From the NCBI RefSeq assembly GCF_013122565.1, contig NZ_CP053258.1: DNA of 64,000 nucleotides. One strand, 5' to 3'. How positions within the stretch are numbered: the stretch's first letter is position 1; every line of letters starts with the position of its first letter. The position numbers and the translations under genes were made by a program. This DNA is from Escherichia coli (GTDB lineage Bacteria > Pseudomonadota > Gammaproteobacteria > Enterobacterales > Enterobacteriaceae). Positions 12,578 to 40,200 of this stretch are shown here, piece by piece. The notes beneath the pieces are model-generated. The model searched no databases, was not told where the DNA came from, and saw only the letters and a list, made by a program, of their open reading frames with translations.

Positions 12578-12585
12578 TGCTACTG

Positions 12586-12611
12586 CAGGATGGCGTTCAT
12601 GCGCCATCCTG
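12586..12611. terminator. Bidirectional hairpin between glpQ and the LysR gene
   Basis: caggatggcg-ttcat-cgccatcctg perfect inverted repeat. Confidence 0.5.
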
Positions 12612-12618
12612 TCTCACA

Positions 12619-13497: not shown

Positions 13498-13648
13498 TAG
13501 GGTGTACTAATCAATAATATTAAAACGATTAATTTCTCTAATAGCATGCCGCCATTTATACTTTTGTTCTGCAAAGTACATCACAATTTGACGCAACCGC
13601 AGTAACGGGAGTGTTGTCTGCGTGCGTCATCCTGATAGGCGGTAGGGT

Positions 13649-14839
13649 ATGAAAGAGAAGTTATGGACGAAGGATTTTTGGGCAATAACCATCATCAGCT
13701 TTATTATTTTCTTCGTCTTTTATGTTTTACTAACATTGTTGCCAATTTATATCTCTGACCGCTTACATGCCTCTCCTGATAAAGCCGGTTTGTTGGTGAC
13801 TTTATTTTTAATTGCCGCCATTGTTATTCGCCCCTTTGCCGGGCAATGGGTGGGTAAATATTCGAATAAAACTATTCTGGTGCTCTCTTCTCTGGCCTTT
13901 TTATTGGTCACAGCGTTGTATCCTTTTTGCCACTCAATTGAATCACTACTTTTTATTCGGGTGCTTCATGGTATTACCTTCGGGGTTATCACTACGGTAA
14001 AAGGAACGATTTCCGCGCGGCTGATCCCGGCCTCCCGACGTGGGGAGGGCATCAGTTTTTTCTCCCTGGCAATGGGGCTGGCAATGGTGGTCGGGCCGTG
14101 GATTGGTCTGAATATGGCGCGCTGGGAAGCCTTTAATCTGGCTTTCTGGCTATGCACGGGCGTGGCAGCGGTGGGGATTATCCTGTCGCTGATTATGACA
14201 GTGCCACCGGTTATCAGCCATGCTGATGGTTCAAAGCCGAAAGTGGGCTTCGCCGCCATGTTCGATCGCGCAGCGTTGCCATTTGCGATGGTCACCTTTT
14301 TTATGACCTTTTCGTATGCCGGGGTTTCTGCTTTTCTGGCGCTTTATGCTCGCGAACTTAACCTGATGTCGGCGGCCAGTAATTTCCTGCTTTGCTATGC
14401 CATCTTCCTGATGATCTGCCGTACCTTTACCGGCAATGTCTGCGACAAAAAAGGACCGAAATATGTGGTTTACCCTTGCCTTGTGTTCTTTACGGTAGGA
14501 CTGGTGGTTCTCGGCTACACCCAGGGAAGCATAATGATGGTTATTTCTGGCGCGTTGATTGGTATCGGGTATGGTTCTGTGACGCCAGTTTTTCAGACGC
14601 AGATTATCAGTTCAGTGGAGCCGCATAAAATCGGTGTCGCAAACTCTCTCTTCTTCAATGCGATGGATGCAGGCCTGGCGCTGGGAGCCTTTGTGATGGG
14701 GATGATGGTTGCACATACTGGCTATCGGATGATCTATCTGCTGGGCGCACTATTAGTGGTAGTGGCTGGTGGAGTCTATGCGCTGCAAATGAAGGGTAAA
14801 AGCCCTGTCGCGCTAGTAGTGGCAAAAGAAATTCATTAA
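13649..14839 (+). CDS. MFS transporter (probable efflux/permease), divergent from the LysR gene
   Basis: 396-aa highly hydrophobic protein, about 12 predicted TM segments. Confidence 0.8.
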   Translation: MKEKLWTKDFWAITIISFIIFFVFYVLLTLLPIYISDRLHASPDKAGLLVTLFLIAAIVIRPFAGQWVGKYSNKTILVLSSLAFLLVTALYPFCHSIESLLFIRVLHGITFGVITTVKGTISARLIPASRRGEGISFFSLAMGLAMVVGPWIGLNMARWEAFNLAFWLCTGVAAVGIILSLIMTVPPVISHADGSKPKVGFAAMFDRAALPFAMVTFFMTFSYAGVSAFLALYARELNLMSAASNFLLCYAIFLMICRTFTGNVCDKKGPKYVVYPCLVFFTVGLVVLGYTQGSIMMVISGALIGIGYGSVTPVFQTQIISSVEPHKIGVANSLFFNAMDAGLALGAFVMGMMVAHTGYRMIYLLGALLVVVAGGVYALQMKGKSPVALVVAKEIH

Positions 14840-14919
14840 TACGACACGTTTCATTAAGATTTTTCGCAGGTAACCACCTATAGTCATTGTCGTTAATAAA
14901 AAATGACAGGCGATAGGGT

Positions 14920-15570
14920 ATGGCAGTTTCAGCAAAGCACGACGAATTTAATCACTGGTGGGCAACAGAGGGCGACTGGGTTGAAGAGCCTAACTATCGC
15001 CGTAATGGTATGAGCGGGGTGCAATGCGTCGAGCGCAACGGCAAAAAGCTGTATGTAAAGCGCATGACGCATCATCTGTTTCATTCCGTACGTTATCCGT
15101 TCGGCCGACCAACGATTGTCCGTGAGGTTGCGGTAATTAAAGAACTGGAACGGGCCGGTGTCATCGTGCCGAAGATCGTTTTTGGTGAAGCGGTGAAAAT
15201 TGAGGGTGAATGGCGCGCGTTGCTGGTGACTGAAGATATGGCGGGGTTCATCAGCATTGCTGACTGGTATGCCCGGCATGCAGTAACGCCTTATTCTGAC
15301 GAAGTACGGCAAGCCATGTTGAAAGCAGTGGCGCTGGCGTTTAAGAAAATGCATAGCATTAATCGTCAGCATGGCTGTTGTTATGTTCGCCATATCTATG
15401 TGAAAACAGAAGGTAAGGCAGAAGCTGGTTTTCTTGACCTGGAGAAAAGTCGTCGCCGCTTGCGTCGCCATAAAGCGATCAATCATGACTTCCGCCAGCT
15501 GGAAAAATATCTGGAGCCAATTCCCAAAGCGGACTGGGAGCAGGTGAAAGCGTATTACTACGCTATGTAA
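14920..15570 (+). CDS. inaA: Acid-inducible Kdo/WaaP-family protein kinase-like protein
   Basis: 216 aa; synteny next to yfaE-nrdB; the 225-aa minus-strand ORF over the same span is judged antisense artefact. Confidence 0.8.
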   Translation: MAVSAKHDEFNHWWATEGDWVEEPNYRRNGMSGVQCVERNGKKLYVKRMTHHLFHSVRYPFGRPTIVREVAVIKELERAGVIVPKIVFGEAVKIEGEWRALLVTEDMAGFISIADWYARHAVTPYSDEVRQAMLKAVALAFKKMHSINRQHGCCYVRHIYVKTEGKAEAGFLDLEKSRRRLRRHKAINHDFRQLEKYLEPIPKADWEQVKAYYYAM

Positions 15571-15573
15571 TCG

Positions 15574-15620
15574 TTGTAGGCCAGATAAAACGCATAAGCG
15601 CCGCATCTGGCACTACAACC
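15574..15620. repeat. REP palindromic unit
   Basis: gtaggccagataaaacgcataagcgccgcatctggcactac between inaA and yfaE. Confidence 0.6.
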
Positions 15621-15623
15621 AAT

Positions 15624-15878
15624 TCACATCTCGATTTCAATATCGCCTTTTGCCCGGCAACAACAGGGCAAAATTTCCCCCGGCTGAATAAAGGCTAACG
15701 GTTCGGCAATCCAGTCCACCTGACCTGCAACCAGGCGTGTGCGACAGGAGCCGCAGTAACCTTCGCGACACTGGTACTCAACCGCCACATTGTGGGATTC
15801 CAGCGCCGCCAGAAGAGAAGGGTGTTCATCCTGGCACAGCAGTTGTGTGCCAGTGATGCGCAGGGTAACGCGGGCCAT
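15624..15878 (-). CDS. yfaE: 2Fe-2S ferredoxin associated with ribonucleotide reductase
   Basis: 84 aa with CxxxxCxxC...C cluster; start overlaps nrdB stop by 1 nt. Confidence 0.88.
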   Translation of the reverse strand: MARVTLRITGTQLLCQDEHPSLLAALESHNVAVEYQCREGYCGSCRTRLVAGQVDWIAEPLAFIQPGEILPCCCRAKGDIEIEM

Positions 15879-17008
15879 CAGAGCTGGAAGTTACTCAAAT
15901 CGTCGGTGTCCACTTCCGCGTCAATCTGCCCGACCAGATAAGAACTGACTTCCACTTCCTGCGGAGCAACCTGCACGTTATCGGACACCAGCCAGGTGTT
16001 GATCCACGGGATCGGGTTGGAGCGAGTCTGGAACGGCAGATCCAAACCGACCGCCTGCATACGGATATTGGTGATGTACTCAACGTACTGGCAGAGAATG
16101 TCTTTATTCAGACCAATCATCGAACCGTCGCGGAACAGATAATCCGCCCAGTCTTTCTCCTGTTGAGCTGCCTGAACAAACAGGTCATAGCACTCCTGCT
16201 TACACTCTTCGGCAATTTCCGCCATCTCCGGATCATCTGCGCCGCTGCGCAGCAGATTCAGCATATGCTGAGTACCGGTCAGGTGCAGGGCTTCGTCGCG
16301 GGCAATCAGGCGAATAATTTTGGCGTTGCCTTCCATCAGTTCGCGTTCTGCAAAGGCAAAGGAGCAAGCAAAGCTGACGTAGAAACGAATCGCTTCCAGC
16401 GCGTTAACGCTCATCAGGCAGAGATACAGTTTTTTCTTCAGCTCGCGCAGGCTAACGGTTACGGTTTTACCGTTAACGGTGTGGGTGCCTTCGCCCAGAA
16501 GGTGCCAGTAGCTGGTCATTTCGATCAGTTCATCGTAATAGCTGGAGATCCCTTCCGCACGTTTCTGGATCTGCTCGTTGGTGACGATATCGTCAAACAC
16601 AACAGACGGATCGTTAATGATATTACGAATGATATGAGTATAGGAGCGGGAATGAATCGTTTCTGAGAACGCCCAGGTTTCGACCCAGGTTTCCAGTTCC
16701 GGGATCGAGATCAGCGGCAGCAGTGCCACGTTCGGGCTACGACCCTGAATGGAGTCCAGCAGCGTCTGATATTTCAGGTTGCTGATAAAGATGTGTTTTT
16801 CGTGTTCAGGCAGTGCCTGGTAATCGATACGGTCGCGAGAAACGTCAACTTCTTCCGGACGCCAGAAGAAAGAGAGCTGCTTTTCGATCAGCTTTTCGAA
16901 GATGTCATATTTTTGCTGATCGTAGCGAGCCACGTTGACCGGCTGACCAAAAAACATCGGTTCTTTAAGCTGATCATTTTTCGTCTGTGAAAAAGTGGTA
17001 TATGCCAT
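15878..17008 (-). CDS. nrdB: Class Ia ribonucleotide reductase beta subunit
   Basis: 376 aa, R2 family. Confidence 0.95.
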
Positions 17009-17044
17009 GAGTGTGTCCTGTGGTTTTATTACCCCTCACCCTAA

Positions 17045-17067
17045 CCCTCTCCCGCAAGGGGAGAGGG
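17045..17067 (-). other. GC-rich intercistronic hairpin between nrdA and nrdB
   Basis: ccctctccc-gcaa-ggggagaggg, 9-10-bp perfect stem. Confidence 0.5.
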
Positions 17068-17096
17068 GACGGTTTGGTGCAAAGGCTGGGGGATTA

Positions 17097-19382
17097 TCAG
17101 ATCTTACATGCGCCGCTTTCGCAGCCATCGTCCTGGATTGACGGCACCAGATCGTCCTGCGCGTCTTCAGCGCCGTCACGGGTGTTCTGATAATACAGCG
17201 TTTTGACCCCGAATTTGTAGGCGGTGAGCAGGTCTTTCAGCAGTTGCTGCATCGGCACTTTTCCTGACGGGAAGCGTGACGGATCGTAGTTGGTGTTGGC
17301 AGAGATCGACTGATCGATAAATTTCTGCATGATACCCACCAGTTGCAGATAACCATCGTTACCCGGCATTTCCCACAGCAGCTCATAAGCGTCGTGCAGG
17401 TGCTCGTAGTCCGGCACCACCTGGCGCAGAATACCGTCTTTCGACGCTTTGATGCTGACGTAACCGCGCGGCGGTTCAATACCGTTGGTGGCGTTAGAGA
17501 TCTGCGAAGAAGTCTCGGACGGCATCAGGGCAGAAAGCGTGGAGTTACGCAGGCCGTGCGTTTTGATTGATTCACGCAATGCTTCCCAGTCGTAATGCAG
17601 CGGCTCATTAGCGATGGCATCCAGATCTTTCTTATAGGTATCGATCGGCAGGATCCCTTTCGCGTAAGTGGTTTCGTTAAACCACGGGCACGCGCCTTGC
17701 TCTTTCGCCAGCTCGTTAGACGCTTTCAGCAGGTAATACTGAATCGCTTCGAAGGTTTTATGCGTCAGGTTGTTGGCGCTGCCGTCGGAGTAGCGTTTAC
17801 CGTGCTTCGCCAGGTAGTAAGCGAAGTTGATCACACCAATACCCAGCGTACGACGACCCATCGCTCCACGTTTGGCGGCCGGGATCGGGTAATCCTGATA
17901 ATCAAGCAGCGCGTCAAGTGCACGAACCGCCAGAATCGCCAGCTCTTCCAGTTCATCCAGGCTATTAATTGCGCCCAGGTTGAAAGCAGACAGCGTACAC
18001 AGCGCGATTTCACCGTTCTCGTCGTTGACGTCGTTCAGCGGTTTGGTCGGCAGGGCAATTTCCAGGCACAGGTTAGACTGGCGCACTGGCGCGATGGCCG
18101 GATCAAACGGGCTATGGGTATTGCAGTGGTCAACGTTCTGAATATAGATACGACCGGTAGACGCACGTTCCTGCATCATCAGCGAGAACAGCTCAACGGC
18201 TTTCACACGCTGCTTGCGGATGCTGTCGTCTTTCTCATATTTGGTATACAGGCGTTCAAACTCTTCCTGATCGGCGAAGAACGCGTCGTACAGCCCCGGT
18301 ACGTCGGACGGGCTGAACAGGGTGATATCTTCACCTTTCAGCAGGCGGGTATACATCAGTTTGTTGATTTGTACCCCGTAGTCCATATGACGCACGCGGT
18401 TGCCTTCAACCCCACGGTTGTTTTTCAACACCAGCAGGCTTTCCACTTCCAGATGCCACATCGGGTAGAACAGCGTTGCCGCACCGCCGCGCACACCGCC
18501 CTGAGAGCAGGATTTCACCGCTGTCTGGAAATGTTTGTAGAACGGGATACAGCCGGTATGGAACGCTTCGCCACCGCGAATCGGGCTACCCAGCGCACGA
18601 ATACGTCCGGCGTTGATGCCGATCCCGGCACGCTGGGAAACATATTTCACAATCGCGCTGGAGGTGGCGTTGATGGAATCCAGGCTGTCACCGCACTCGA
18701 TCAGTACGCAGGAGCTGAACTGACGAGTCGGGGTACGCACGCCGGACATGATTGGCGTCGGCAGCGAAATTTTAAATGTGGAAACCGCGTCGTAAAAACG
18801 CTTCACATATTGCAGGCGCGTTTCACGCGGGTAGTTCGAGAACAGGCACGCAGCAACCAGAATATAAAGGAACTGGGCGCTCTCATAGATTTCGCCGGTC
18901 ACACGGTTCTGTACCAGATATTTCCCTTCCAGCTGCTTAACGGCAGCATAAGAGAAGGTCATATCACGGTCGTGATCGATAAACGTGTCCATCTGCTTGA
19001 ACTCTTCTTCCGTGTAGTCTTCCAGCAGATGATTATCGTATTTGCCCATCTCGACCATTTTCACCACATGGTCGTACAGCGCAGGCGGCTCAAACTGGCC
19101 GTAGGCTTTTTTACGCAGGTGGAAGATCGCCAGGCGCGCGGCGAGATACTGATAATCCGGCGCATCACGGGAGATCAGGTCTGCGGCAGCCTTGATAATG
19201 GTTTCGTGGATGTCAGAGGTCTTGATACCGTCATAAAACTGAATGTGGGAGCGCAGCTCGACCTGGGAAATCGAAACGTTATGCAGTCCTTCTGCCGCCC
19301 AATCCAGAACGCGATGGATTTTGTCGAGATTGATGCGCTCTGTGCTACCGTCGCGCTTTGTCACCAGCAGATTCTGATTCAT
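17097..19382 (-). CDS. nrdA: Class Ia ribonucleotide reductase alpha subunit
   Basis: 761 aa with N-terminal ATP-cone; the 625-aa plus-strand ORF inside it is antisense artefact. Confidence 0.95.
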   Translation of the reverse strand: MNQNLLVTKRDGSTERINLDKIHRVLDWAAEGLHNVSISQVELRSHIQFYDGIKTSDIHETIIKAAADLISRDAPDYQYLAARLAIFHLRKKAYGQFEPPALYDHVVKMVEMGKYDNHLLEDYTEEEFKQMDTFIDHDRDMTFSYAAVKQLEGKYLVQNRVTGEIYESAQFLYILVAACLFSNYPRETRLQYVKRFYDAVSTFKISLPTPIMSGVRTPTRQFSSCVLIECGDSLDSINATSSAIVKYVSQRAGIGINAGRIRALGSPIRGGEAFHTGCIPFYKHFQTAVKSCSQGGVRGGAATLFYPMWHLEVESLLVLKNNRGVEGNRVRHMDYGVQINKLMYTRLLKGEDITLFSPSDVPGLYDAFFADQEEFERLYTKYEKDDSIRKQRVKAVELFSLMMQERASTGRIYIQNVDHCNTHSPFDPAIAPVRQSNLCLEIALPTKPLNDVNDENGEIALCTLSAFNLGAINSLDELEELAILAVRALDALLDYQDYPIPAAKRGAMGRRTLGIGVINFAYYLAKHGKRYSDGSANNLTHKTFEAIQYYLLKASNELAKEQGACPWFNETTYAKGILPIDTYKKDLDAIANEPLHYDWEALRESIKTHGLRNSTLSALMPSETSSQISNATNGIEPPRGYVSIKASKDGILRQVVPDYEHLHDAYELLWEMPGNDGYLQLVGIMQKFIDQSISANTNYDPSRFPSGKVPMQQLLKDLLTAYKFGVKTLYYQNTRDGAEDAQDDLVPSIQDDGCESGACKI

Positions 19383-19458
19383 GTATGTCGTACCTGTTTT
19401 TGGAATTCTTTCCGCAATAGTTTCATGCAGACTACCTGTAGTACGGGAGGCTGCTTAG

Positions 19459-19506
19459 AACACTATATATAGGGGGTATGTTTGGGATTCACTGCAAGAT
19501 AGTGTG
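19459..19506 (-). promoter_or_regulatory. Two NrdR-box-like palindromes in the nrdAB promoter/leader
   Basis: cactatatatag core at 19461-19472 and cactgcaagatagtgtg at 19490-19506, centres about 31 bp apart. Confidence 0.5.
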
Positions 19507-19535
19507 AAAATGGCCCTCTTGCAAGTGCATAACTT

Positions 19536-19544
19536 TGTGGATAA
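19536..19544 (-). promoter_or_regulatory. DnaA box (TTATCCACA on minus strand)
   Basis: Perfect 9-mer upstream of the nrdA promoter region. Confidence 0.5.
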
Positions 19545-20077
19545 CTCAGGAAGGAAAAAGTGGCTTTCGCGCACCTTAGGTCAGACAAGGTGTCCGGGAA
19601 AGTCAATGGGAAGAGAAAAATTTGTTAAAAATAACTGTTCGGCGATTTCTTGAACGGCAGAATAGGTTGGATAAATTGATATAGATGGTTTATTAATCTT
19701 TTTGCTAATGATTGCAAAAATTGATCTAAGCACGAGTCATCACATAATCTGATGTATCAGTTGTGGTCAATATATAAGCGAATGTAAGCGATTGTTGATG
19801 TCGAAATGGTTGTTTTCTATTCGGTTGTTGTTAAATGCTAAGCCATTTTGTTAATTTACCTTATATTATAAGAAAATTATTGATTACTTTAATTCAGTTT
19901 AAATATAACTGATATCCCTAAAGGTTATTAACTTGAATTATGACGCATTGATATTATTCATCAAATAATAACAAAATAGCCATTGCACCGCGTTGAACAA
20001 TTTACAAAAGAAAGAAAAACCTTATTGCATAATACGTTTAAATACGCCGTCTTATATAAAATGATGGTCAGATTAAT

Positions 20078-23000
20078 ATGCGAGTTATCTTTCTACGCAA
20101 GGAGTATTTATCTTTACTCCCGTCAATGATTGCGTCTCTCTTCTCAGCTAATGGCATTGCGGCAGTCACTGATTCATGCCAGGGATATGATATCAAAGCG
20201 AGTTGCCAGGCCAGCAGGCAAAGCCTTTCAGGCATTACGCAGGACTGGAGTATCGCCGATGGGCAATGGCTGGTTTTTTCGGATATGACCAATAACGCCA
20301 GCGGTGGGGCCGTATTTTTGCAACAAGGAGCGAAATTTACATTATCACCAGAAAACGAAACTGGAATGACTCTGTTTGCCAATAACACCGTTACAGGAGA
20401 ATATAATAACGGCGGGGCCATATTTGCTAAAGAAAACTCAACGCTGAATCTTACTGATGTTATTTTTTCCGGTAACGTCGCAGGCGGCTATGGTGGCGCA
20501 ATCTATTCTTCTGGTACTAATGATACTGGTGCCGTCGATTTAAGTGTCACTAACGCCATGTTTCGCAATAACATCGCTAATGATGGCAAAGGTGGCGCAA
20601 TTTATACCATTAATAATGACGTCTATTTAAGTGATGTTATTTTTGATAACAACCAGGCATATACATCAACAAGTTACAGTGATGGCGATGGCGGGGCAAT
20701 CGATGTTACCGATAATAATAGCGACAGCAAGCATCCTTCAGGTTATACGATAATAAATAACACCGCCTTTACAAATAACACAGCCGAAGGTTATGGCGGG
20801 GCGATATATACCAATAGCGCGACGGCTCCCTATCTTATTGATATTTCTGTTGATGACAGCTACAGCCAGAACGGCGGCGTGTTAGTCGATGAGAACAATA
20901 GCGCAGCAGGCTATGGAGAGGGTCCTTCCACTGCGGCGGGTGGCTTTATGTATCTCGGCTTAAGTGAAGTTACCTTTGATATTGCCGACGGAAAAACGCT
21001 GGTTATCGGCAATACAGAGAATGACGGAGCTGTTGACTCTATTGCTGGTACCGGGTTGATCACCAAAACAGGTTCCGGCGATCTGGTACTTAATGCAGAT
21101 AACAATGACTTTACTGGTGAGATGCAGATTGAAAACGGTGAAGTTATCCTGGGCCGCAGCAACTCACTGATGAATGTCGGAGATAGTCATTGCCAGGACG
21201 ATCCGCAACACTGCTACGGTCTGACGATAGGGAGTATTGATAAGTACCAGAATCAGGCAGAACTAAATGTTGGCTCCACCCAACAAACCTTTGTGCACTC
21301 ATTGACGGGCTTTCAGAATGGCACTTTAAATATCGATGCTGGTGGCAACGTTACTGTTAATCAGGGCAGTTTTGCTGGCACCATCGAAGGTGCTGGTCAG
21401 CTCACCATTGCGCAAAACGGCAGCTACGTGCTGGCAGGGGCGCAGTCAATGGCGCTAACTGGCGATATAGTGGTGGATGATGGCGCGGTGCTTTCGCTGG
21501 AAGGCGACGCGGCAGATCTTGCCGCTCTCCAGGACGATCCGCAGTCGATCGTGTTAAACGGCGGTGTGCTCGATCTCTCTGATTTCTCCACCTGGCAGAG
21601 CGGTACATCATACAACGATGGCCTTGAAGTCAGCGGCAGCAGCGGAACGGTTATCGGCAGTCAGGATGTGGTAGATCTTGCAGGCGGAAACGATATGCAT
21701 ATCGGCGGTGACGGGAAAGATGGCGTCTACGTGGTGGTGGATGCGGGCGACGGGCAGGTCAGCCTGGCAAATGACAATCAATACCTCGGCACAACGCAAA
21801 TTGCTTCCGGTACGCTGATGGTGAGCGACAACACGCAGCTTGGAGATACCCATTATAACCGCCAGGTTATCTTTACTGATAATCAACAAGAAAGCGTGAT
21901 GGAGATTACTGCCAATGTCGATACTCGTTCTACAACGGCTGAGCATGGGCGTGATATTGAAATGCGCGCCGACGGTGAAGTGGCAGTTGATGCGGGGGTA
22001 GACACGCAGTGGGGCGCACTGATGGCTGACAGCAGCAGGCAACATCAGGATGAGGGTAGCACATTGACTAAAACGGGGGCGGGTACACTTGAGCTGACCG
22101 CCAGCGGTACAACGCAGTCAGCGGTACGTGTCGAAGAAGGCTCCCTGAAAGGTGATGTTGCGGATATCTTCCCTTATGCTTCGTCGCTGTGGGTCGGTGA
22201 CGGGGCAACGTTCGTTACTGGCGCGGATCAGGATATTCAGTCAATTGATGCTACTTCCAGCGGCACTATCGACATCAGCGATGGTACGGTTTTGCGCCTG
22301 ACCGGGCAGGATACTTCCGTCGCCCTTAATGCCTCACTGTTTAACGGCGATGGGACGCTGGTGAATATCACCGATGGCGTGACGTTGACAGGTGAGCTTA
22401 ATACCAACCTTGAAACTGACAGCCTGACCTATCTTGCCGACGTGACGGTTAATGGTGATCTGACCAATACGTCCGGTGCGGTTAGCCTGCAAAATGGCGT
22501 CGTTGGCGATACGCTGACGGTAAACGGTGATTACACCGGCGGCGGTACGTTACTGCTCGACAGCGAATTAAACGGCGATGACTCAGCAAGCGACCAGTTG
22601 GTGTTGAACGGTAATACTGCTGGCAATACCACGGTTGTGATTAATCCCATTACAGGGATTGGTGAGCCGACATCTACAGGCATTAAAGTGGTTGATTTCG
22701 CAGCTGATCCCACGCAGTTTCAAAACAATGCGCAGTTCAGTCTGGCAGGCAGTGGCTACGTCAACATGGGAGCGTATGACTACACGCTGGTGGAAGATAA
22801 CAACGACTGGTATCTGCGATCGCAAGAAGTAACGCCGCCATCGCCACCTGATCCAGACCCGACTCCCGATCCTGATCCTTCGCCGGATCCTGATCCAACA
22901 CCCGACCCGGCCCCTACGCCTGCCTACAAGCCAGTGTTGAATGCCAAAGTTGGTGGATATTTTAATAACCTGCGGGCGGCAAATCAGGCGTTTATGATGG

Positions 23001-23830
23001 AGCGACGCGATCACGCTGGTGGCGATGGTCAGACGCTGAATTTACGTGTTATCGGCGGAGATTATCATTACACAGCAGCGGGGCAACTGGCTCAGCATGA
23101 AGACACTTCTACAGTGCAGCTTAGCGGCGACCTGTTTAGCGGGCGCTGGGGGGATAATGGCGAGTGGATGCTTGGGGCGGTTGGTGGCTACAGTGATAAT
23201 CAGGGCGACAGCCGCTCGAATCTGACCGGAACTCGCGCCGATAACCAGAACCACGGTTATGCCGTTGGGCTGACCTCAAGCTGGTTTCAGCACGGTAAGC
23301 AGAAGCAGGGGGCCTGGCTGGATAGCTGGCTGCAATACGCGTGGTTTAGCAACGATGTTTCCGAACAAGACGATGGCGCGGATCATTACCATTCGTCGGG
23401 AATTATTGCTTCTCTGGAAGCGGGGTATCAGTGGTTACCGGGGCATGGTGTGGTGATTGAACCGCAGGCGCAGGTGATTTATCAGGGCGTGCAACAGGAT
23501 GATTTTACCGCCGCTAACCATGCGCGCGTGTCACAATCGCAGGGTGATGATATTCAAACGCGGCTGGGTTTACACAGCGAATGGCGTACCGCTGTTCATG
23601 TCATACCAACATTAGATCTGAATTATTATCACGATCCGCATTTGGCAGAAATTGAAGAAGATGGCAGCACTATCAGTGACGATGCGGTGAAGCAACGGGG
23701 TGAAATAAAAGTGGGAGTCACGGGCAATATCAGTCAGCGAGTCTCGCTGCGCGGCAGCGTGGCGTGGCAGAAAGGGAGTGATGATTTTGCCCAGACGGCA
23801 GGGTTTTTATCGATGACGGTGAAATGGTAA
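20078..23830 (+). CDS. yfaL: AIDA-I-type autotransporter adhesin
   Basis: 1250 aa; N-terminal signal; repetitive Gly/Asn/Thr-rich passenger; Pro-rich PDPDPTPDP linker; C-terminal beta-barrel domain. Confidence 0.85.
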   Translation: MRVIFLRKEYLSLLPSMIASLFSANGIAAVTDSCQGYDIKASCQASRQSLSGITQDWSIADGQWLVFSDMTNNASGGAVFLQQGAKFTLSPENETGMTLFANNTVTGEYNNGGAIFAKENSTLNLTDVIFSGNVAGGYGGAIYSSGTNDTGAVDLSVTNAMFRNNIANDGKGGAIYTINNDVYLSDVIFDNNQAYTSTSYSDGDGGAIDVTDNNSDSKHPSGYTIINNTAFTNNTAEGYGGAIYTNSATAPYLIDISVDDSYSQNGGVLVDENNSAAGYGEGPSTAAGGFMYLGLSEVTFDIADGKTLVIGNTENDGAVDSIAGTGLITKTGSGDLVLNADNNDFTGEMQIENGEVILGRSNSLMNVGDSHCQDDPQHCYGLTIGSIDKYQNQAELNVGSTQQTFVHSLTGFQNGTLNIDAGGNVTVNQGSFAGTIEGAGQLTIAQNGSYVLAGAQSMALTGDIVVDDGAVLSLEGDAADLAALQDDPQSIVLNGGVLDLSDFSTWQSGTSYNDGLEVSGSSGTVIGSQDVVDLAGGNDMHIGGDGKDGVYVVVDAGDGQVSLANDNQYLGTTQIASGTLMVSDNTQLGDTHYNRQVIFTDNQQESVMEITANVDTRSTTAEHGRDIEMRADGEVAVDAGVDTQWGALMADSSRQHQDEGSTLTKTGAGTLELTASGTTQSAVRVEEGSLKGDVADIFPYASSLWVGDGATFVTGADQDIQSIDATSSGTIDISDGTVLRLTGQDTSVALNASLFNGDGTLVNITDGVTLTGELNTNLETDSLTYLADVTVNGDLTNTSGAVSLQNGVVGDTLTVNGDYTGGGTLLLDSELNGDDSASDQLVLNGNTAGNTTVVINPITGIGEPTSTGIKVVDFAADPTQFQNNAQFSLAGSGYVNMGAYDYTLVEDNNDWYLRSQEVTPPSPPDPDPTPDPDPSPDPDPTPDPAPTPAYKPVLNAKVGGYFNNLRAANQAFMMERRDHAGGDGQTLNLRVIGGDYHYTAAGQLAQHEDTSTVQLSGDLFSGRWGDNGEWMLGAVGGYSDNQGDSRSNLTGTRADNQNHGYAVGLTSSWFQHGKQKQGAWLDSWLQYAWFSNDVSEQDDGADHYHSSGIIASLEAGYQWLPGHGVVIEPQAQVIYQGVQQDDFTAANHARVSQSQGDDIQTRLGLHSEWRTAVHVIPTLDLNYYHDPHLAEIEEDGSTISDDAVKQRGEIKVGVTGNISQRVSLRGSVAWQKGSDDFAQTAGFLSMTVKW

Positions 23831-23853
23831 TCGCATCTCACCAGGCATCACTG

Positions 23854-23935
23854 CCGGATGCGGCGTAAACGCCTTATCTGGCCTACGGAGAGCATTTGTA
23901 GGCCTGATAAGACGCGGCAAGCGTCGCATCAGGCA
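23854..23935. repeat. BIME: two inverted REP units between yfaL and ubiG
   Basis: gccggatgcggcgtaaacgccttatctggcctac and gtaggcctgataagacgcggcaagcgtcgcatcaggc. Confidence 0.7.
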
Positions 23936-23957
23936 TTGGCGCGGCCAAACATCAACC

Positions 23958-24680
23958 TCACTTATTCTGCGTGTGCAGCATATAGTTCACATCCACGCCG
24001 GGGCCGAGCTTAAAGGAATTAGTGATCGGGTTGTAATGCAGCCCAGTCATATGCCGCTCTTTAAGGCTTGTCTGATCCACCCAGCCAAGCAGCTCTGCCG
24101 GTTTAATAAACTTCTTCACATCATGCGTGCCTTTGGGCACCATGCGCAAAATATATTCCGCGCCAACCACCGCCATCAGCCATGACTTGCCGTTGCGGTT
24201 AAGCGTCGAGAAAAAGACATCGCCGCCCGGTTTCACCAGTTGCGCACAGGCTCTGACCACTGACTGCGGATCGGGAACGTGCTCCAGCATCTCCATGCAG
24301 GTCACCACATCATACTGCCCGGCATGTTTTGCCGCGTGCTCTTCCACGGTTTCCTGCACGTAATCCACCTGAATGCCGCTTTCCAGTGCGTGCAGTTTTG
24401 CCACCTGCAATGGCTCAAAGCCCATATCCAGACCGGTCACCGTCGCGCCTTCGCGCGCCATACTCTCGGCCAGAATGCCGCCGCCACAACCGACATCGAG
24501 CACCTTTTTGCCAAATAAACCGCCAGCACGCTCGGCAATATAGCCCAGACGCAGCGGGTTAATGCGGTGCAGCGGTTTGAACTCACCTTCAAGATCCCAC
24601 CAGCGGGAGGCAACGGCTTCAAATTTAGCGATCTCTTCGTGGTCTACGTTATGGTTTACCGGCGATTTTTCGGCATTCAT
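23958..24680 (-). CDS. ubiG: Ubiquinone biosynthesis O-methyltransferase
   Basis: 240 aa from ATG 24680 (MNAEKSPV); SAM-binding VLDVGCGGG motif. Confidence 0.92.
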
Positions 24681-24826
24681 TGGCACTTCTACTCCGTAAT
24701 TGGCAAGACAAACGAGTATATCAGGCATTGGATGTGAATAAAGCGTATAGGTTTACCTCAATCTGCGCGGCTGTGTTATAATTTGCGACCTTTGAATCCG
24801 GGATACAGTAGAGGGATAGCGGTTAG

Positions 24827-27454
24827 ATGAGCGACCTTGCGAGAGAAATTACACCGGTCAACATTGAGGAAGAGCTGAAGAGCTCCTATCTGGATTATGC
24901 GATGTCGGTCATTGTTGGCCGTGCGCTGCCAGATGTCCGAGATGGCCTGAAGCCGGTACACCGTCGCGTACTTTACGCCATGAACGTACTAGGCAATGAC
25001 TGGAACAAAGCCTATAAAAAATCTGCCCGTGTCGTTGGTGACGTAATCGGTAAATACCATCCCCATGGTGACTCGGCGGTTTATGACACGATCGTCCGTA
25101 TGGCGCAGCCATTCTCGCTGCGTTACATGCTGGTAGACGGTCAGGGTAACTTCGGTTCCATCGACGGCGACTCTGCGGCGGCAATGCGTTATACGGAAAT
25201 CCGTCTGGCGAAAATTGCCCATGAACTGATGGCCGATCTCGAAAAAGAGACGGTCGATTTCGTTGATAACTATGACGGCACGGAAAAAATTCCCGACGTC
25301 ATGCCAACCAAAATTCCTAACCTGCTGGTGAACGGTTCTTCCGGTATCGCCGTAGGTATGGCAACCAACATCCCGCCGCACAACCTGACGGAAGTCATCA
25401 ACGGTTGTCTGGCGTATATCGATGATGAAGACATCAGCATTGAAGGGCTGATGGAACACATCCCGGGGCCGGACTTCCCGACGGCGGCAATCATTAACGG
25501 TCGTCGCGGTATTGAAGAAGCTTACCGTACCGGTCGCGGCAAGGTATATATCCGCGCCCGTGCTGAAGTGGAAGTTGACGCCAAAACCGGACGTGAAACC
25601 ATTATCGTCCACGAAATTCCGTATCAGGTAAACAAAGCGCGCCTGATCGAGAAGATTGCGGAACTGGTAAAAGAAAAACGCGTGGAAGGCATCAGCGCGC
25701 TGCGTGACGAGTCTGACAAAGACGGTATGCGCATCGTGATTGAAGTGAAACGCGATGCGGTCGGTGAAGTTGTGCTCAACAACCTCTACTCCCAGACCCA
25801 GTTGCAGGTTTCTTTCGGTATCAACATGGTGGCATTGCACCATGGTCAGCCAAAGATCATGAACCTGAAAGACATCATCGCGGCGTTTGTTCGTCACCGC
25901 CGTGAAGTGGTGACCCGTCGTACTATTTTCGAACTGCGTAAAGCTCGCGATCGTGCTCATATCCTTGAAGCATTAGCCGTGGCGCTGGCGAACATCGACC
26001 CGATCATCGAACTGATCCGTCATGCGCCGACGCCTGCAGAAGCGAAAACTGCGCTGGTTGCTAATCCGTGGCAGCTGGGTAACGTTGCCGCCATGCTCGA
26101 ACGTGCGGGCGACGATGCTGCGCGTCCGGAATGGCTGGAGCCAGAGTTCGGCGTGCGTGACGGTCTGTACTACCTGACCGAACAGCAAGCCCAGGCAATT
26201 CTGGATCTGCGTTTGCAGAAACTGACCGGCCTTGAGCACGAAAAACTGCTCGACGAATACAAAGAGCTGCTGGATCAGATCGCGGAACTGTTGCGTATTC
26301 TTGGTAGCGCCGATCGTCTGATGGAAGTGATCCGCGAAGAGCTGGAGCTGGTTCGTGAACAGTTCGGTGACAAACGTCGTACTGAAATCACCGCCAACAG
26401 CGCAGACATCAACCTGGAAGATCTGATCACCCAGGAAGATGTGGTCGTGACGCTCTCTCACCAGGGCTACGTTAAATATCAGCCGCTTTCTGAATACGAA
26501 GCGCAGCGTCGTGGCGGGAAAGGTAAATCTGCCGCACGTATTAAAGAAGAAGACTTTATCGACCGACTGCTGGTGGCGAACACGCACGATCATATCCTGT
26601 GCTTCTCCAGCCGTGGTCGCGTCTATTCGATGAAAGTTTATCAGTTGCCAGAAGCCACTCGTGGTGCGCGCGGTCGTCCGATCGTCAACCTGCTGCCGCT
26701 GGAGCAGGACGAACGTATCACCGCGATCTTGCCGGTGACCGAGTTTGAAGAAGGCGTGAAAGTCTTCATGGCGACCGCTAACGGTACCGTGAAGAAAACT
26801 GTCCTCACCGAATTCAACCGTCTGCGTACCGCCGGTAAAGTGGCGATCAAACTGGTTGAAGGCGATGAGTTGATCGGCGTTGACCTGACCAGTGGCGAAG
26901 ATGAAGTAATGCTGTTCTCCGCCGAAGGTAAAGTGGTGCGCTTTAAAGAGTCTTCTGTCCGTGCGATGGGCTGCAATACCACTGGTGTGCGCGGTATTCG
27001 CTTAGGCGAAGGCGATAAAGTCGTCTCTCTGATCGTGCCTCGTGGCGATGGCGCAATCCTCACCGCAACGCAAAACGGTTATGGTAAGCGTACCGCAGTG
27101 GCGGAATACCCAACCAAGTCGCGTGCGACGAAAGGGGTTATCTCCATCAAGGTTACCGAACGTAACGGTTTAGTGGTTGGCGCGGTGCAGGTAGATGACT
27201 GCGACCAGATCATGATGATCACCGATGCCGGTACGCTGGTACGTACTCGCGTTTCGGAAATCAGCATCGTGGGCCGTAACACCCAGGGCGTGATCCTCAT
27301 CCGTACTGCGGAAGATGAAAACGTAGTGGGTCTGCAACGTGTTGCTGAACCGGTTGACGAGGAAGATCTGGATACCATCGACGGCAGTGCCGCGGAAGGG
27401 GACGATGAAATCGCTCCGGAAGTGGACGTTGACGACGAGCCAGAAGAAGAATAA
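24827..27454 (+). CDS. gyrA: DNA gyrase subunit A
   Basis: 875 aa; [15 protein letters not shown]; acidic C-terminal tail. Confidence 0.97.
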
Positions 27455-27474
27455 TTTTACTTCTTCATGCCAAA

Positions 27475-27496
27475 AGGGAGCTATCTCCCTTGTTTG
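27475..27496 (+). terminator. Candidate gyrA terminator hairpin
   Basis: agggag-ctat-ctccct followed by tgtttg; a second imperfect hairpin with T-run at about 27510-27535. Confidence 0.4.
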
Positions 27497-27602
27497 AATT
27501 GAAAAGTCCAGGCTGCAAAGTCTGGGCTTTTGTCGTATTAGGGCGCGGTAAAGTTTGGCTGTGCCCGTAAAAAATGGCTGGCTATACACAAGGAATGTGG
27601 CA

Positions 27603-34449
<6,847 letters not shown>

Positions 34450-36099
34450 GTGAACTGGCGCAGAATCGTCTGGCTATTGGCGTTGGTTACTCAGCCAACG
34501 CTTGCGGAGGAGACGCCGTTACAACTGGCGCTGCGGGGCGCGCAGCACGATCAACTGTATCGGCTGTCGTCATCAGGCGTGACCAAAGTCTCGGCATTAC
34601 CTGACACGCTCACCACGCCGTTAGGGAGTTTGTGGAAACTGTATGTTTACGCCTGGCTGGAGGATACCCATCAACCGGAGCAGCCCTACCAGTGTCGCGG
34701 AAACTCCCCGGAAGAGGTTTATTGTTGTCAGGCTGGGGAGAGCATAACGCGCGATACCGCGCTGGTACGTTCCTGTGGGCTCTATTTTGCGCCGCAGCGG
34801 TTGCATATTGGCGCAGATGTGTGGGGGCAATACTGGCAACAGCGTCAGGCACCTGCGTGGTTAGCGTCTCTTACTACGCTGAAGCCAGAAACCTCGGTAA
34901 CGGTTAAATCGCTGCTTGATTCATTAGCGACGTTACCTGCGCAAAACAAAGCTCAGGAAGTCTTACTGGATGTGGTGCTGGACGAGGCGAAAATCGGTGT
35001 CGCATCCATGCTCGGTAGTCGGGTACGGGTGAAAACCTGGAGCTGGTTTGCCGATGATAAACAGGAAATCCGTCAGGGTGGTTTTGCTGGCTGGTTAACC
35101 GATGGTACACCGCTGTGGGTTACTGGCAGTGGCACCAGCAAAACGGTACTAACCCGTTATGCGACGGTGCTTAATCGGGTTTTGCCAGTGCCGACGCAGG
35201 TTGCCAGTGGGCAATGTGTAGAGGTGGAGCTGTTTGCCCGCTATCCGCTGAAGAAAATCACAGCGGAAAAGAGTACGACGGCAGTAAAACCCGGCGTACT
35301 TAATGGGCGCTATCGTGTGACATTTGCCAATGGTAACCACATTACGTTTGTCAGCCACGGTGAGACGACCTTACTGAGCGAAAAGGGCAAACTGAAATTG
35401 CAGTCGCATCTCGATCGTGAAGAGTATGTTGCCAGAGTTCTGGATCGCGAGGCGAAAAGTACGCCACCTGAGGCAGCGAAAGCCATGACCGTGGCGATAC
35501 GCACTTTTTTACAGCAAAACGCCAATCGGGAAGGCGATTGCCTGACCATCCCTGACAGCAGCGCCACGCAGCGTGTTTCGGCTTCGCCAGCGACCACGGG
35601 GGCGCGAACGATGACCGCCTGGACGCAGGATCTCATCTATGCGGGCGATCCGGTTCATTATCACGGCAGTCGCGCTAGCGAAGGGACGCTTTCCTGGCGG
35701 CAAGCCACGGCCCAGGCGGGGCAGGGAGAGCGTTACGACCAGATACTCGCGTTTGCTTATCCCGACAACAGCCTTAGCCGCTGGGGAGCGCCACGCTCAA
35801 CCTGCCAGTTATTACCCAAAGCGAAAGCCTGGCTGGCGAAAAAAATGCCGCAGTGGCGGCGTATATTACAAGGCGAGACAGGGTACAACGAACCAGACGT
35901 GTTTGCGGTCTGTCGTTTAGTCTCAGGTTTCCCCTATACCGATCGGCAGCAGAAACGGCTGTTTATTCGTAACTTCTTTACGCTTCAGGATCGGCTGGAT
36001 TTAACCCATGAGTATCTGCACCTGGCCTTTGATGGTTATCCCACCGGGCTTGATGAGAACTATATCGAAACGCTGACCCGACAATTATTAATGGACTAA
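34450..36099 (+). CDS. yfaQ: DUF2300-family exported protein
   Basis: 549 aa; GTG start immediately after yfaS TAA stop; signal peptide. Confidence 0.75.
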   Translation: MNWRRIVWLLALVTQPTLAEETPLQLALRGAQHDQLYRLSSSGVTKVSALPDTLTTPLGSLWKLYVYAWLEDTHQPEQPYQCRGNSPEEVYCCQAGESITRDTALVRSCGLYFAPQRLHIGADVWGQYWQQRQAPAWLASLTTLKPETSVTVKSLLDSLATLPAQNKAQEVLLDVVLDEAKIGVASMLGSRVRVKTWSWFADDKQEIRQGGFAGWLTDGTPLWVTGSGTSKTVLTRYATVLNRVLPVPTQVASGQCVEVELFARYPLKKITAEKSTTAVKPGVLNGRYRVTFANGNHITFVSHGETTLLSEKGKLKLQSHLDREEYVARVLDREAKSTPPEAAKAMTVAIRTFLQQNANREGDCLTIPDSSATQRVSASPATTGARTMTAWTQDLIYAGDPVHYHGSRASEGTLSWRQATAQAGQGERYDQILAFAYPDNSLSRWGAPRSTCQLLPKAKAWLAKKMPQWRRILQGETGYNEPDVFAVCRLVSGFPYTDRQQKRLFIRNFFTLQDRLDLTHEYLHLAFDGYPTGLDENYIETLTRQLLMD

Positions 36100-36103
36100 T
36101 GCT

Positions 36104-36880
36104 ATGCGAAAGATTTTTCTTCCGTTGTTACTGGTGGCGCTTTCGCCTGTCGCTCACAGTGAAGGTGTGCAGGAAGTCGAGATTGATGCACCGCTCTCTG
36201 GCTGGCATCCGGCAGAGGGCGAAGATGCCAGTTTTTCACAATCGATCAATTACCCGGCGTCGTCCGTCAACATGGCAGATGATCAAAATATCTCAGCGCA
36301 GATCCGCGGCAAAATAAAAAATTATGCTGCGGCGGGTAAGGTTCAGCAGGGCCGGCTGGTGATCAACGGTGCCAGTATGCCGCAGAGAATTGAATCCGAT
36401 GGTTCATTTGCACGCCCTTATATTTTCACTGAAGGCAGCAACAGCGTGCAGGTCATCAGCCCGGATGGGCAAAGCCGACAAAAAATGCAGTTTTACTCAA
36501 CGCCGGGTACAGGAACGATTCGTGCACGTTTACGGCTGGTTCTCTCGTGGGATACGGACAATACCGATCTCGATCTCCATGTTGTCACGCCCGATGGCGA
36601 ACACGCCTGGTACGGTAACACCGTGCTGAAAAACAGTGGTGCACTGGATATGGATGTCACGACGGGGTACGGACCCGAGATTTTCGCCATGCCAGCACCA
36701 GTTCACGGGCGCTATCAGGTGTATATCAACTACTATGGTGGGCGCAGCGAAACGGAATTAACCACCGCCCAACTGACGCTGATCACCGATGAAGGATCGG
36801 TCAATGAGAAACAGGAAACATTTATTGTACCGATGCGTAATGCTGGCGAGCTGACGCTGGTGAAAAGTTTTGACTGGTGA
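36104..36880 (+). CDS. yfaP: DUF2135-family exported protein
   Basis: 258 aa; ATG 4 nt after yfaQ stop; signal peptide. Confidence 0.8.
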   Translation: MRKIFLPLLLVALSPVAHSEGVQEVEIDAPLSGWHPAEGEDASFSQSINYPASSVNMADDQNISAQIRGKIKNYAAAGKVQQGRLVINGASMPQRIESDGSFARPYIFTEGSNSVQVISPDGQSRQKMQFYSTPGTGTIRARLRLVLSWDTDNTDLDLHVVTPDGEHAWYGNTVLKNSGALDMDVTTGYGPEIFAMPAPVHGRYQVYINYYGGRSETELTTAQLTLITDEGSVNEKQETFIVPMRNAGELTLVKSFDW

Positions 36881-36934
36881 TCCATCCCTTCACACAACCT
36901 GGCGCTCTCTTTTTTCAGATAAGACTGCTGGGCG

Positions 36935-36978
36935 ATCTGCCGACGCCAGGATATAACCATTAACAAGCGTCGGCAGAT
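36935..36978. other. Perfect 12-bp inverted repeat with 20-nt loop at the yfaP-rcsC junction
   Basis: atctgccgacgc ... gcgtcggcagat. Confidence 0.6.
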
Positions 36979-37151
36979 TGGTCATTTCTTATTCGTACTG
37001 AGAACTGTCCATTTACTCTGGCTTTCCTGGTTAAGGCAATGGTTTCCAAGCGATACGCATTATTGCAATGGTGACAGAACATTGCGGTAACACGCTTTTA
37101 CCGCTACCTTAACCACACTCCATCGGTCACCTGAGGCGGAGCTTCGCCCCT

Positions 37152-40001
37152 TTGAAATACCTTGCTTCTTTTCGTACAACCCTGAAAGCCTCGCGCTACA
37201 TGTTCAGAGCATTGGCGTTAGTGCTCTGGCTGTTGATTGCTTTTTCATCCGTTTTTTACATCGTTAATGCGTTACATCAGCGAGAATCGGAAATTCGTCA
37301 GGAATTTAATCTGAGTTCCGATCAGGCTCAGCGCTTTATTCAACGCACCTCTGATGTGATGAAAGAGCTGAAGTACATCGCTGAAAATCGCTTATCGGTA
37401 GAAAACGGTGTGCTTTCCCCGCGTGGACGAGAAACGCAGGCAGATGTGCCTGCGTTTGAACCGCTGTTTGCCGACTCCGATTGTTCCGCAATGAGTAACA
37501 CCTGGCGAGGTTCTCTGGAGTCATTGGCGTGGTTTATGCGCTACTGGCGCGATAATTTTTCTGCGGCTTACGATCTCAACCGGGTATTTTTAATCGGCAG
37601 CGATAACCTCTGCATGGCCAATTTCGGTCTGCGTGATATGCCAGTGGAACGCGATACCGCGTTGAAAGCTTTGCATGAACGCATCAATAAATATCGAAAT
37701 GCACCACAAGATGATAGCGGCAGTAACCTCTACTGGATCAGCGAAGGTCCGCGCCCTGGCGTCGGGTATTTTTACGCGTTGACGCCAGTTTATCTGGCGA
37801 ACCGGTTGCAGGCGCTTTTGGGTGTCGAGCAAACCATCCGGATGGAGAACTTTTTCTTACCGGGTACGTTGCCGATGGGGGTTACCATTCTTGATGAAAA
37901 TGGTCATACCCTGATTTCGCTTACCGGACCAGAAAGCAAAATTAAGGGCGATCCTCGCTGGATGCAGGAACGCTCCTGGTTTGGCTATACGGAAGGGTTC
38001 CGGGAGCTGGTGCTGAAGAAAAATCTGCCACCCTCATCGCTAAGCATCGTGTATTCGGTGCCGGTTGATAAGGTGCTGGAACGCATTCGCATGTTGATCC
38101 TTAACGCAATTTTGCTGAATGTGCTTGCCGGAGCTGCATTGTTTACTCTCGCGCGGATGTACGAGCGACGTATTTTCATTCCGGCGGAAAGCGACGCCCT
38201 GCGACTGGAAGAACATGAGCAGTTCAATCGCAAGATTGTCGCCTCCGCGCCAGTGGGTATCTGCATTTTGCGTACCGCTGATGGCGTCAATATTTTAAGT
38301 AACGAACTGGCGCATACCTATCTCAATATGCTTACGCATGAGGACCGCCAACGACTGACGCAAATTATCTGTGGGCAGCAGGTCAATTTTGTTGATGTCC
38401 TGACCAGCAACAATACCAATCTGCAAATCAGCTTCGTCCATTCGCGCTATCGTAATGAAAACGTGGCCATTTGTGTGCTGGTGGATGTTTCTTCGCGCGT
38501 GAAGATGGAAGAGTCGTTGCAGGAGATGGCACAAGCAGCGGAACAGGCGAGCCAGTCAAAATCGATGTTCCTTGCCACCGTCAGTCATGAGCTGCGAACG
38601 CCGCTGTATGGCATTATCGGTAACCTGGATCTTTTGCAAACCAAAGAGTTACCGAAAGGCGTCGATCGTCTGGTGACGGCAATGAACAACTCTTCCAGCC
38701 TGTTGTTGAAAATTATCAGCGATATTCTCGATTTCTCGAAGATTGAATCGGAACAGTTGAAGATCGAACCGCGTGAGTTTTCACCGCGTGAAGTGATGAA
38801 CCACATCACCGCCAACTATTTACCGCTGGTGGTACGCAAGCAGTTAGGCTTGTACTGCTTTATTGAACCGGATGTGCCAGTGGCCTTAAATGGCGACCCG
38901 ATGCGTTTACAGCAGGTCATCTCCAACCTGTTGAGTAACGCCATAAAATTCACCGATACCGGCTGTATAGTTTTGCATGTCCGCGCTGATGGCGATTATC
39001 TCTCTATCCGTGTTCGCGATACCGGCGTGGGGATCCCGGCGAAAGAAGTGGTGCGCTTGTTTGATCCCTTCTTCCAGGTCGGAACGGGCGTACAGCGAAA
39101 CTTCCAGGGGACCGGTCTGGGTCTGGCGATTTGTGAAAAACTGATCAGCATGATGGACGGCGACATCTCGGTAGATTCAGAACCGGGAATGGGCAGCCAG
39201 TTTACCGTGCGTATTCCGTTGTACGGCGCTCAGTACCCGCAGAAAAAAGGCGTGGAAGGGTTGAGTGGTAAACGCTGCTGGCTGGCGGTCCGCAATGCGT
39301 CACTCTGTCAGTTCCTGGAAACCAGTTTGCAGCGCAGCGGCATCGTCGTAACAACATACGAAGGGCAGGAACCGACTCCCGAAGATGTGTTAATCACTGA
39401 CGAGGTAGTGAGTAAAAAATGGCAGGGCAGAGCGGTAGTGACCTTCTGTCGTCGACATATTGGTATTCCGCTGGAGAAAGCGCCAGGGGAGTGGGTACAC
39501 AGTGTGGCTGCTCCGCATGAGCTACCGGCATTGTTGGCGCGTATTTATTTGATCGAGATGGAGAGCGACGATCCTGCTAACGCTCTGCCGTCGACGGACA
39601 AAGCGGTCAGCGATAATGACGATATGATGTTTCTGGTCGTGGATGATCATCCGATTAACCGACGTCTGCTGGCAGATCAGTTGGGATCGTTGGGCTATCA
39701 ATGTAAAACCGCGAATGATGGCGTCGATGCGCTTAATGTACTTAGCAAGAATCATATTGATATCGTGCTTAGCGACGTCAACATGCCAAATATGGATGGT
39801 TACCGCTTGACGCAACGCATTCGTCAGTTGGGACTGACGTTGCCGGTAATCGGAGTAACTGCTAATGCGTTGGCTGAAGAGAAGCAGCGGTGTCTGGAGT
39901 CCGGTATGGACAGCTGCCTGTCGAAGCCGGTAACGCTGGATGTGATAAAACAGACGCTGACGGTATATGCCGAGAGGGTCAGGAAATCGCGGGAATCGTA
40001 G
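37152..40001 (+). CDS. rcsC: Rcs phosphorelay hybrid sensor histidine kinase
   Basis: 949 aa; HisKA H-box (SHELRTPL), HATPase and C-terminal receiver domain; apparent TTG start. Confidence 0.92.
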   Translation: MKYLASFRTTLKASRYMFRALALVLWLLIAFSSVFYIVNALHQRESEIRQEFNLSSDQAQRFIQRTSDVMKELKYIAENRLSVENGVLSPRGRETQADVPAFEPLFADSDCSAMSNTWRGSLESLAWFMRYWRDNFSAAYDLNRVFLIGSDNLCMANFGLRDMPVERDTALKALHERINKYRNAPQDDSGSNLYWISEGPRPGVGYFYALTPVYLANRLQALLGVEQTIRMENFFLPGTLPMGVTILDENGHTLISLTGPESKIKGDPRWMQERSWFGYTEGFRELVLKKNLPPSSLSIVYSVPVDKVLERIRMLILNAILLNVLAGAALFTLARMYERRIFIPAESDALRLEEHEQFNRKIVASAPVGICILRTADGVNILSNELAHTYLNMLTHEDRQRLTQIICGQQVNFVDVLTSNNTNLQISFVHSRYRNENVAICVLVDVSSRVKMEESLQEMAQAAEQASQSKSMFLATVSHELRTPLYGIIGNLDLLQTKELPKGVDRLVTAMNNSSSLLLKIISDILDFSKIESEQLKIEPREFSPREVMNHITANYLPLVVRKQLGLYCFIEPDVPVALNGDPMRLQQVISNLLSNAIKFTDTGCIVLHVRADGDYLSIRVRDTGVGIPAKEVVRLFDPFFQVGTGVQRNFQGTGLGLAICEKLISMMDGDISVDSEPGMGSQFTVRIPLYGAQYPQKKGVEGLSGKRCWLAVRNASLCQFLETSLQRSGIVVTTYEGQEPTPEDVLITDEVVSKKWQGRAVVTFCRRHIGIPLEKAPGEWVHSVAAPHELPALLARIYLIEMESDDPANALPSTDKAVSDNDDMMFLVVDDHPINRRLLADQLGSLGYQCKTANDGVDALNVLSKNHIDIVLSDVNMPNMDGYRLTQRIRQLGLTLPVIGVTANALAEEKQRCLESGMDSCLSKPVTLDVIKQTLTVYAERVRKSRES

Positions 40002-40200
40002 GACGGATAAGGTGTTTATGCCGCATCTGGCATTCAGTGCAAATGCCAGATGCGACGCTGACGCGTCTTATCTGGCCTACTTTAATGTAATCTGTTGAAA
40101 TAATGGGAATCGTAGGACGGATAAGGCGTTTACGCCGCATCCGGCAATCGGTGCAAATGCCAGATAAGACACTAACTAGTCTTATCTGGCCTACATCTGG
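39991..40200. repeat. Tandem duplication (period 114 bp) of a REP-containing unit
   Basis: gggaatcgtaggacggataagg occurs at 39991 and 40105, each followed by REP palindromes; the first copy includes the last 11 nt of rcsC. Confidence 0.7.

Follow-up and report, generated by a model that had tools for sequence, protein, structure and literature searches.

The DNA analysed here, a stretch of 64,000 nucleotides that we call the window, carries the DNA gyrase gene gyrA, and the interval at 25073-25087 is almost certainly part of an intact, expressed-looking copy of that gene that encodes a wild-type, quinolone-sensitive GyrA. This agrees with the first-pass annotation, which had read codon 83 as TCG (Ser) at 25073-25075 and codon 87 as GAC (Asp) at 25085-25087; the coordinates, codons and residues are all correct by direct reading. 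The parts of the gene on which our argument draws are the following.

24827-27454, plus strand: gyrA coding sequence, DNA gyrase subunit A, with an ATG start and 875 codons followed by a TAA stop
25025-25144, plus strand: quinolone-resistance-determining region (QRDR), codons 67-106, with amino acids identical to those of K-12
25073-25075, plus strand: codon 83, TCG, serine, wild type (direct reading, K-12 alignment and assembly SRR11451224)
25085-25087, plus strand: codon 87, GAC, aspartate, wild type (direct reading, K-12 alignment and assembly SRR11451224)
25187-25192, plus strand: codons 121-122, Arg121-Tyr122, within the motif AAMRYTE at residues 118-124
26504-26524, plus strand: GyrA box QRRGGKG, residues 560-566, a motif read in the translation
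26858-26860, plus strand: codon 678 in the C-terminal domain, GAA (glutamate) where K-12 has GAC (aspartate), from the K-12 and 6rks_A alignments

The open reading frame listing and its translation give a single long frame (875 residues) in register with the flagged codons, which is full length and has neither a frameshift nor an internal stop. Its product scores 1309.7 bits against the NCBIfam GyrA equivalog TIGR01063 (cut-off 877) and 1258.7 bits against a second GyrA model, NF004043 (cut-off 902), while Pfam places PF00521 at residues 32-507, followed by six PF03989 stretches of the C-terminal beta-pinwheel. Aligned with E. coli GyrA from the Protein Data Bank (6rks_A), the protein runs from 1-875 to 1-875 without a gap and with one mismatch, at residue 678. 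At the nucleotide level, the window gene and gyrA of K-12 MG1655 (b2231) are both 2628 nt long, differ by no insertion or deletion, and have TCG and GAC at the same codons. The neighbouring genes are likewise arranged as in E. coli, in the order nrdBA, yfaL, ubiG (on the opposite strand), gyrA and yfaA-yfaT-yfaS-yfaQ-yfaP. Counting from the start codon, 24827 + 82x3 gives 25073 and 24827 + 86x3 gives 25085, and the flagged triplets are therefore codons 83 and 87.

These data also bear on whether the frame could be a paralogue such as parC, or its numbering offset, with residues 83 and 87 misplaced as a result. ParC, the A subunit of topoisomerase IV, shares the PF00521 N-terminal fold and has a similar drug-contact motif of a serine and an acidic residue at its equivalent Ser80/Glu84 site, and the window protein does give sub-threshold matches to parC models. 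However, its score against TIGR01062 (parC_Gneg) is 581.5 bits, below the cut-off of 628.9, in contrast to the wide margin by which it passes the GyrA equivalog, and, unlike ParC, it has the GyrA box and the six C-terminal-domain repeats. The GyrA box, found in the first C-terminal-domain blade, is a motif that sets GyrA apart from ParC. In addition, the ubiG-gyrA-yfaA synteny is that of the E. coli gyrA locus. A codon-numbering error, which the first-pass annotation had named as the way its reading could fail, is absent, as the alignments to K-12 GyrA and 6rks_A are both gapless over residues 1-875. Given the model scores and these gapless alignments, we rejected a paralogue or numbering error, whose probability we regard as vanishingly small, and we treat the gene as gyrA with its standard numbering. 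Since gyrA is a strongly conserved essential gene, a chance match is irrelevant to this call. The 64-kb window does not contain parC. The protein also has the acidic tail, and its Tyr122 is the catalytic DNA-cleaving tyrosine of E. coli GyrA.

The segment at 25061-25093 reads CAT CCC CAT GGT GAC TCG GCG GTT TAT GAC ACG, and the 11-residue motif that had been given for the surroundings of codons 83 and 87 is found at residues 78-88. Alignment of the translated gene to a reference, which the first-pass annotation had proposed as a check, shows a QRDR identical to that of K-12, with D678E as the sole difference in the whole protein. Three silent differences from K-12 fall within the QRDR, at codons 85 (GTT in the window, GTC in K-12), 91 (CGT, CGC) and 100 (TAC, TAT), and another silent change is found at codon 111. 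Positions 51, 67, 81, 82, 83, 84, 87, 106, 119 and 196 of GyrA are all wild type, including A51, A119 and A196.

Could the wild-type call be an artefact of assembly or consensus building, or could this gyrA be inactive? We consider either to be practically negligible. An independent Logan assembly of the public sequencing run SRR11451224 contains a contig (_3) that is 100% identical to the window over 23907-40139 (16,233 nt), which includes the whole of gyrA, and it has TCG at codon 83 and GAC at codon 87. As for inactivity, the reading frame is full length, the promoter region is conserved, and gyrA is an essential gene in E. coli. The interval is best read as part of an intact wild-type gyrA.

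The closest well-characterized counterpart is GyrA of K-12 MG1655 (b2231, NP_416734.1; structures 6RKS, 6RKU, 6RKV, 6RKW, 1AB4 and 3NUH), which has the same length, the same QRDR and 874 of 875 identical residues, and whose gene has the same neighbours, ubiG and yfaA. The differences amount to 43 nucleotides (98.36% identity), of which 42 are synonymous and one, at codon 678, is non-synonymous; this is the pattern of an essential gene, probably one under purifying selection. From the near-identity to the characterized K-12 protein, the window GyrA would be expected to act together with GyrB in ATP-dependent negative supercoiling. An exact counterpart of the protein is WP_001281251.1 of E. coli ECNB21-M121, also found in O145:H28 RM12761, which represents the common wild-type allele with D678E only. 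The ECNB21-M121 gene is the best nucleotide match to the window gyrA among 5,426 complete genomes and differs from it at 25 silent nucleotides (99.05% identity).

Because D678E is all that separates this protein from that of K-12, its own effect matters for whether the allele is functionally wild type. One study (PMC11721436) lists D678E in a strain that had been exposed stepwise to enrofloxacin, counts it among "recently discovered" resistance substitutions and regards it as resistance-inducing, from which it could be argued that D678E itself lowers quinolone susceptibility. That report, however, concerns a single strain, without allelic replacement. A pan-genome resistance study (PMC7067475) recorded the E. 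coli allele with only D678E relative to K-12 in 152 susceptible isolates and one resistant isolate, and the exact window protein is common: at least 1000 contigs carry it, with E. coli gyrase A as its recorded name. In resistant clinical isolates, D678E accompanies S83L/D87N in particular sequence types (ST405, ST38 and ST1193; PMC10638923), as would a lineage polymorphism. To judge from the domain boundaries, residue 678 belongs to the C-terminal domain that wraps DNA and is probably far from the drug pocket. We therefore think it very unlikely that D678E compromises susceptibility. The first-pass annotation had predicted no gyrA-mediated resistance from this allele, and Ser83 and Asp87, the wild-type QRDR and, indirectly, the susceptibility of nearly all D678E-only isolates support that prediction.

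In E. coli gyrase, the side chains of Ser83 and Asp87 are next to the DNA gate and close to the catalytic Tyr122. The water-metal-ion bridge concept comes from earlier work (PMC3632122), and in E. coli gyrase both Ser83 and Asp87 act as anchors of the bridge (PMC9917921). According to this mechanism, Ser83 and Asp87 of the window GyrA would anchor a water-Mg2+ bridge that joins the enzyme, in the cleavage complex, to the keto-acid of a fluoroquinolone. With both residues present, the bridge could form, and the subunit would be expected to contribute no target-mediated resistance. The drug-binding role that we assign to the two residues here is carried over from this established biochemistry.

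The surroundings of the gene are consistent with its being expressed, and four elements can be placed by sequence reading or consensus matching.

24681-24826, plus strand: ubiG-gyrA intergenic region, 146 nt (sequence reading)
24774-24782, plus strand: extended -10 element TGtTATAAT (sequence reading)
24811-24815, plus strand: Shine-Dalgarno-like GAGGG (sequence reading)
27474-27501, plus strand: terminator-like hairpin with a T-rich tail, 20 nt past the gyrA stop (consensus match only)

The 176 nt upstream of the gyrA ATG, made up of the intergenic region and 30 nt of ubiG, contain one difference from K-12. A generic promoter scan of the intergenic region returned no -35/-10 pair, and we assign the -10 element on the grounds that the upstream region is nearly identical to that of K-12; from what is known of K-12, the TGtTATAAT bases are thus a candidate gyrA promoter. 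It may be added that one of the 146 intergenic nucleotides differs from K-12, compared with 43 of the 2628 in the coding sequence, and the regulatory region thus shows stronger conservation than the synonymous sites.

To see how common the allele is, we used megablast to count 39-mers over codons 79-91 in the 5,426 complete E. coli genomes. Only exact carriers are reported in this way, because a 39-mer altered at codon 83 or 87 no longer offers a 28-base exact word. The counts are as follows.

2,013 genomes: the window's wild-type 39-mer (GTT at codon 85)
639 genomes: the wild-type 39-mer with the K-12 silent variant (GTC)
1,371 genomes: the S83L+D87N 39-mer in the GTT background
331 genomes: the S83L+D87N 39-mer in the GTC background
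1,072 genomes: other combinations or silent variants (by subtraction)

A wild-type 39-mer is thus carried by at least 2,652 of the 5,426 genomes (at least 49%), and an S83L+D87N 39-mer by 1,702 (at least 31%). The resistant S83L and S83L+D87N alleles affect the same codons of the same gene, and the S83L+D87N 39-mers differ from that of the window by two bases only (TCG>TTG and GAC>AAC), where the window has Ser and Asp. These counts support both the ordinariness of the window's state and the earlier statement that chromosomal fluoroquinolone resistance in E. coli arises mainly through substitutions at codons 83 and 87, which also fits the published work (PMC9917921; PMC3632122). The wild-type Ser83/Asp87 allele is an already known, routine feature of a textbook gene.

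The lineage from which the window derives appears less ordinary. Among the 5,426 complete genomes, the best match to the window gyrA reaches 99.0% identity and six genomes reach 99%, while the three thirds of the window find best matches of 97.7%, 97.8% and 98.1%, with top strains that differ between thirds. K-12 is fully collinear with the window over the 64 kb at 97.1-98.1% identity. Our first control for these figures was strain ECNB21-M121, for which only four genomes reach at least 99%, so that it belongs to a rare lineage itself; we next ran K-12 as a control, whose counterpart of 44001-64000 is matched by 1,086 genomes with an identity of 99% or above, in a species range that extends down to 96.9%. 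From the K-12 control, it follows that the window falls inside E. coli diversity and is without close relatives. The comparison with other species agrees: the gyrA region is 91.8% identical to that of Escherichia sp. E1V33, 89.4% to that of E. whittamii and 84.8% to that of E. albertii. Its identity to K-12, well beyond a species limit of about 95%, its E. coli gene order and its greater distance from the other Escherichia species place the window in E. coli. The name applies in the broad sense only, since no complete E. coli genome comes closer to the window than about 98%, and the window does not contain the phylogroup marker genes. A search of the GTDB species representatives with a 60-mer of the QRDR, degenerate at silent positions, matched four other Escherichia at 84.8-95.5% identity over the aligning stretch, and given these identities the window is not any of the four.

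Beyond complete genomes, the exact sequences of three variable proteins of the window, YfaL, RcsC and YfaS, were found only on SRR11451224 contigs in an index of 153 billion genes, and contigs of this assembly are 100% identical to the window over 10078-23886 as well as over the gyrA-containing stretch. Exact look-ups of OmpC and YfaA in the same protein index returned none; the YfaA miss reflects a gap in the index and does not show absence, since the Logan contig has yfaA among its called genes. A full-text search turned up no paper that mentions SRR11451224, and the supplementary data of a survey of cryptic clade I do not list it. Two other sources were considered. Cryptic clade I has an average nucleotide identity above 98.3% internally and is represented by complete genomes (PMC10100065), and it is an unlikely source, as no complete genome labelled E. 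coli is more than 98.1% identical to the window. Shigella likewise seems unlikely, given that the 64 kb are collinear with K-12 and free of IS insertions and pseudogenes. Our tentative reading, which we hold at somewhat less than even confidence, is that the source is an E. coli lineage of phylogroup depth without a close relative among the 5,426 complete RefSeq genomes.

Contig NZ_JAATUR010000019.1 comes from the GTDB species representative "E. coli" SCPM-O-B-8794. Over the ubiG-gyrA stretch, its identity is only about 95.4% to K-12 and about 95.5% to the window, and its gyrA, with an open reading frame of 878 residues, is 95.9% identical to that of the window. In the region compared (1-9907), the yfaA-yfaP cluster is lacking, and atoB-like genes (89.7% identical to K-12) come immediately after gyrA. 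Under the label E. coli, SCPM-O-B-8794 represents a divergent lineage of Escherichia.

Several features elsewhere in the window were noted.

4591-4649: 24-bp tandem repeat of 2.5 copies (88% matches), just downstream of an rpnE-like reading frame at 4709-5608
12619-14839: between glpQ and inaA, a divergent pair of a LysR-family regulator (292 residues, minus strand) and a major facilitator superfamily (MFS) transporter (396 residues, plus strand)
29935-34449: alpha-2-macroglobulin gene yfaS, intact (1504 residues)
36881-37029: junction at which yfaP is followed directly by rcsC
40001-40191: two REP/BIME elements after rcsC
43864-45394: micF (RF00033, 116.8 bits) and an intact OmpC of 367 residues (NF007841, 771.7 bits)
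51975-52301: between eco and mqo, a REP/BIME-type tandem array with a 113-bp unit and 2.9 copies (92% matches)

In K-12, the site of the LysR-MFS pair is occupied only by the yfaH pseudogene remnant, whose model (NF007272) is matched by the C-terminal end of the LysR protein; the ECNB21-M121 copy of the stretch is about 91.6% identical to that of the window, which makes it more divergent than its flanks. The K-12 yfaS is annotated as a pseudogene, and the atoSCDAEB operon that K-12 has between rcsC and yfaP is absent. The eco-mqo array has more copies in K-12, and its elements, like the two after rcsC, match the Rfam family naRNA4 (RF02564). Breaks between the Logan contigs of SRR11451224 fall at REP/BIME-type repeats.

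The genotype at gyrA addresses one route to resistance, and the strain could still be fluoroquinolone non-susceptible through gyrB, parC, parE, marR/acrR/soxR, qnr, aac(6')-Ib-cr, qepA or oqxAB. In that case, the wild-type call would hold but would not predict the phenotype. None of these loci lies within the window, whose gene order follows that of K-12 between yfaX and ccmF, and an additional MFS transporter with a LysR regulator is present. On the other hand, high-level resistance in E. coli normally begins with changes at gyrA S83, the transporter is matched by generic MFS models only and falls far below the cut-off of any resistance family, and both OmpC and micF are intact. We regard non-susceptibility by such routes as unlikely. 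The prediction from the wild-type allele is confined to gyrA-mediated resistance, as the first-pass annotation had correctly worded it; efflux and porin changes, gyrB, parC, parE and plasmid genes may still act.

The gyrA call itself is routine genotype-to-phenotype annotation and adds no new biology. A by-product of the analysis is that the window appears to come from an E. coli lineage that is poorly represented in complete-genome collections. If our tentative reading of the source is true, the wild-type gyrA would represent the baseline allele in a population that is essentially unsampled and probably non-clinical, and the gyrA site would still be an ordinary one. For the isolate, which is without a gyrA target mutation, any fluoroquinolone non-susceptibility must arise elsewhere in the genome.
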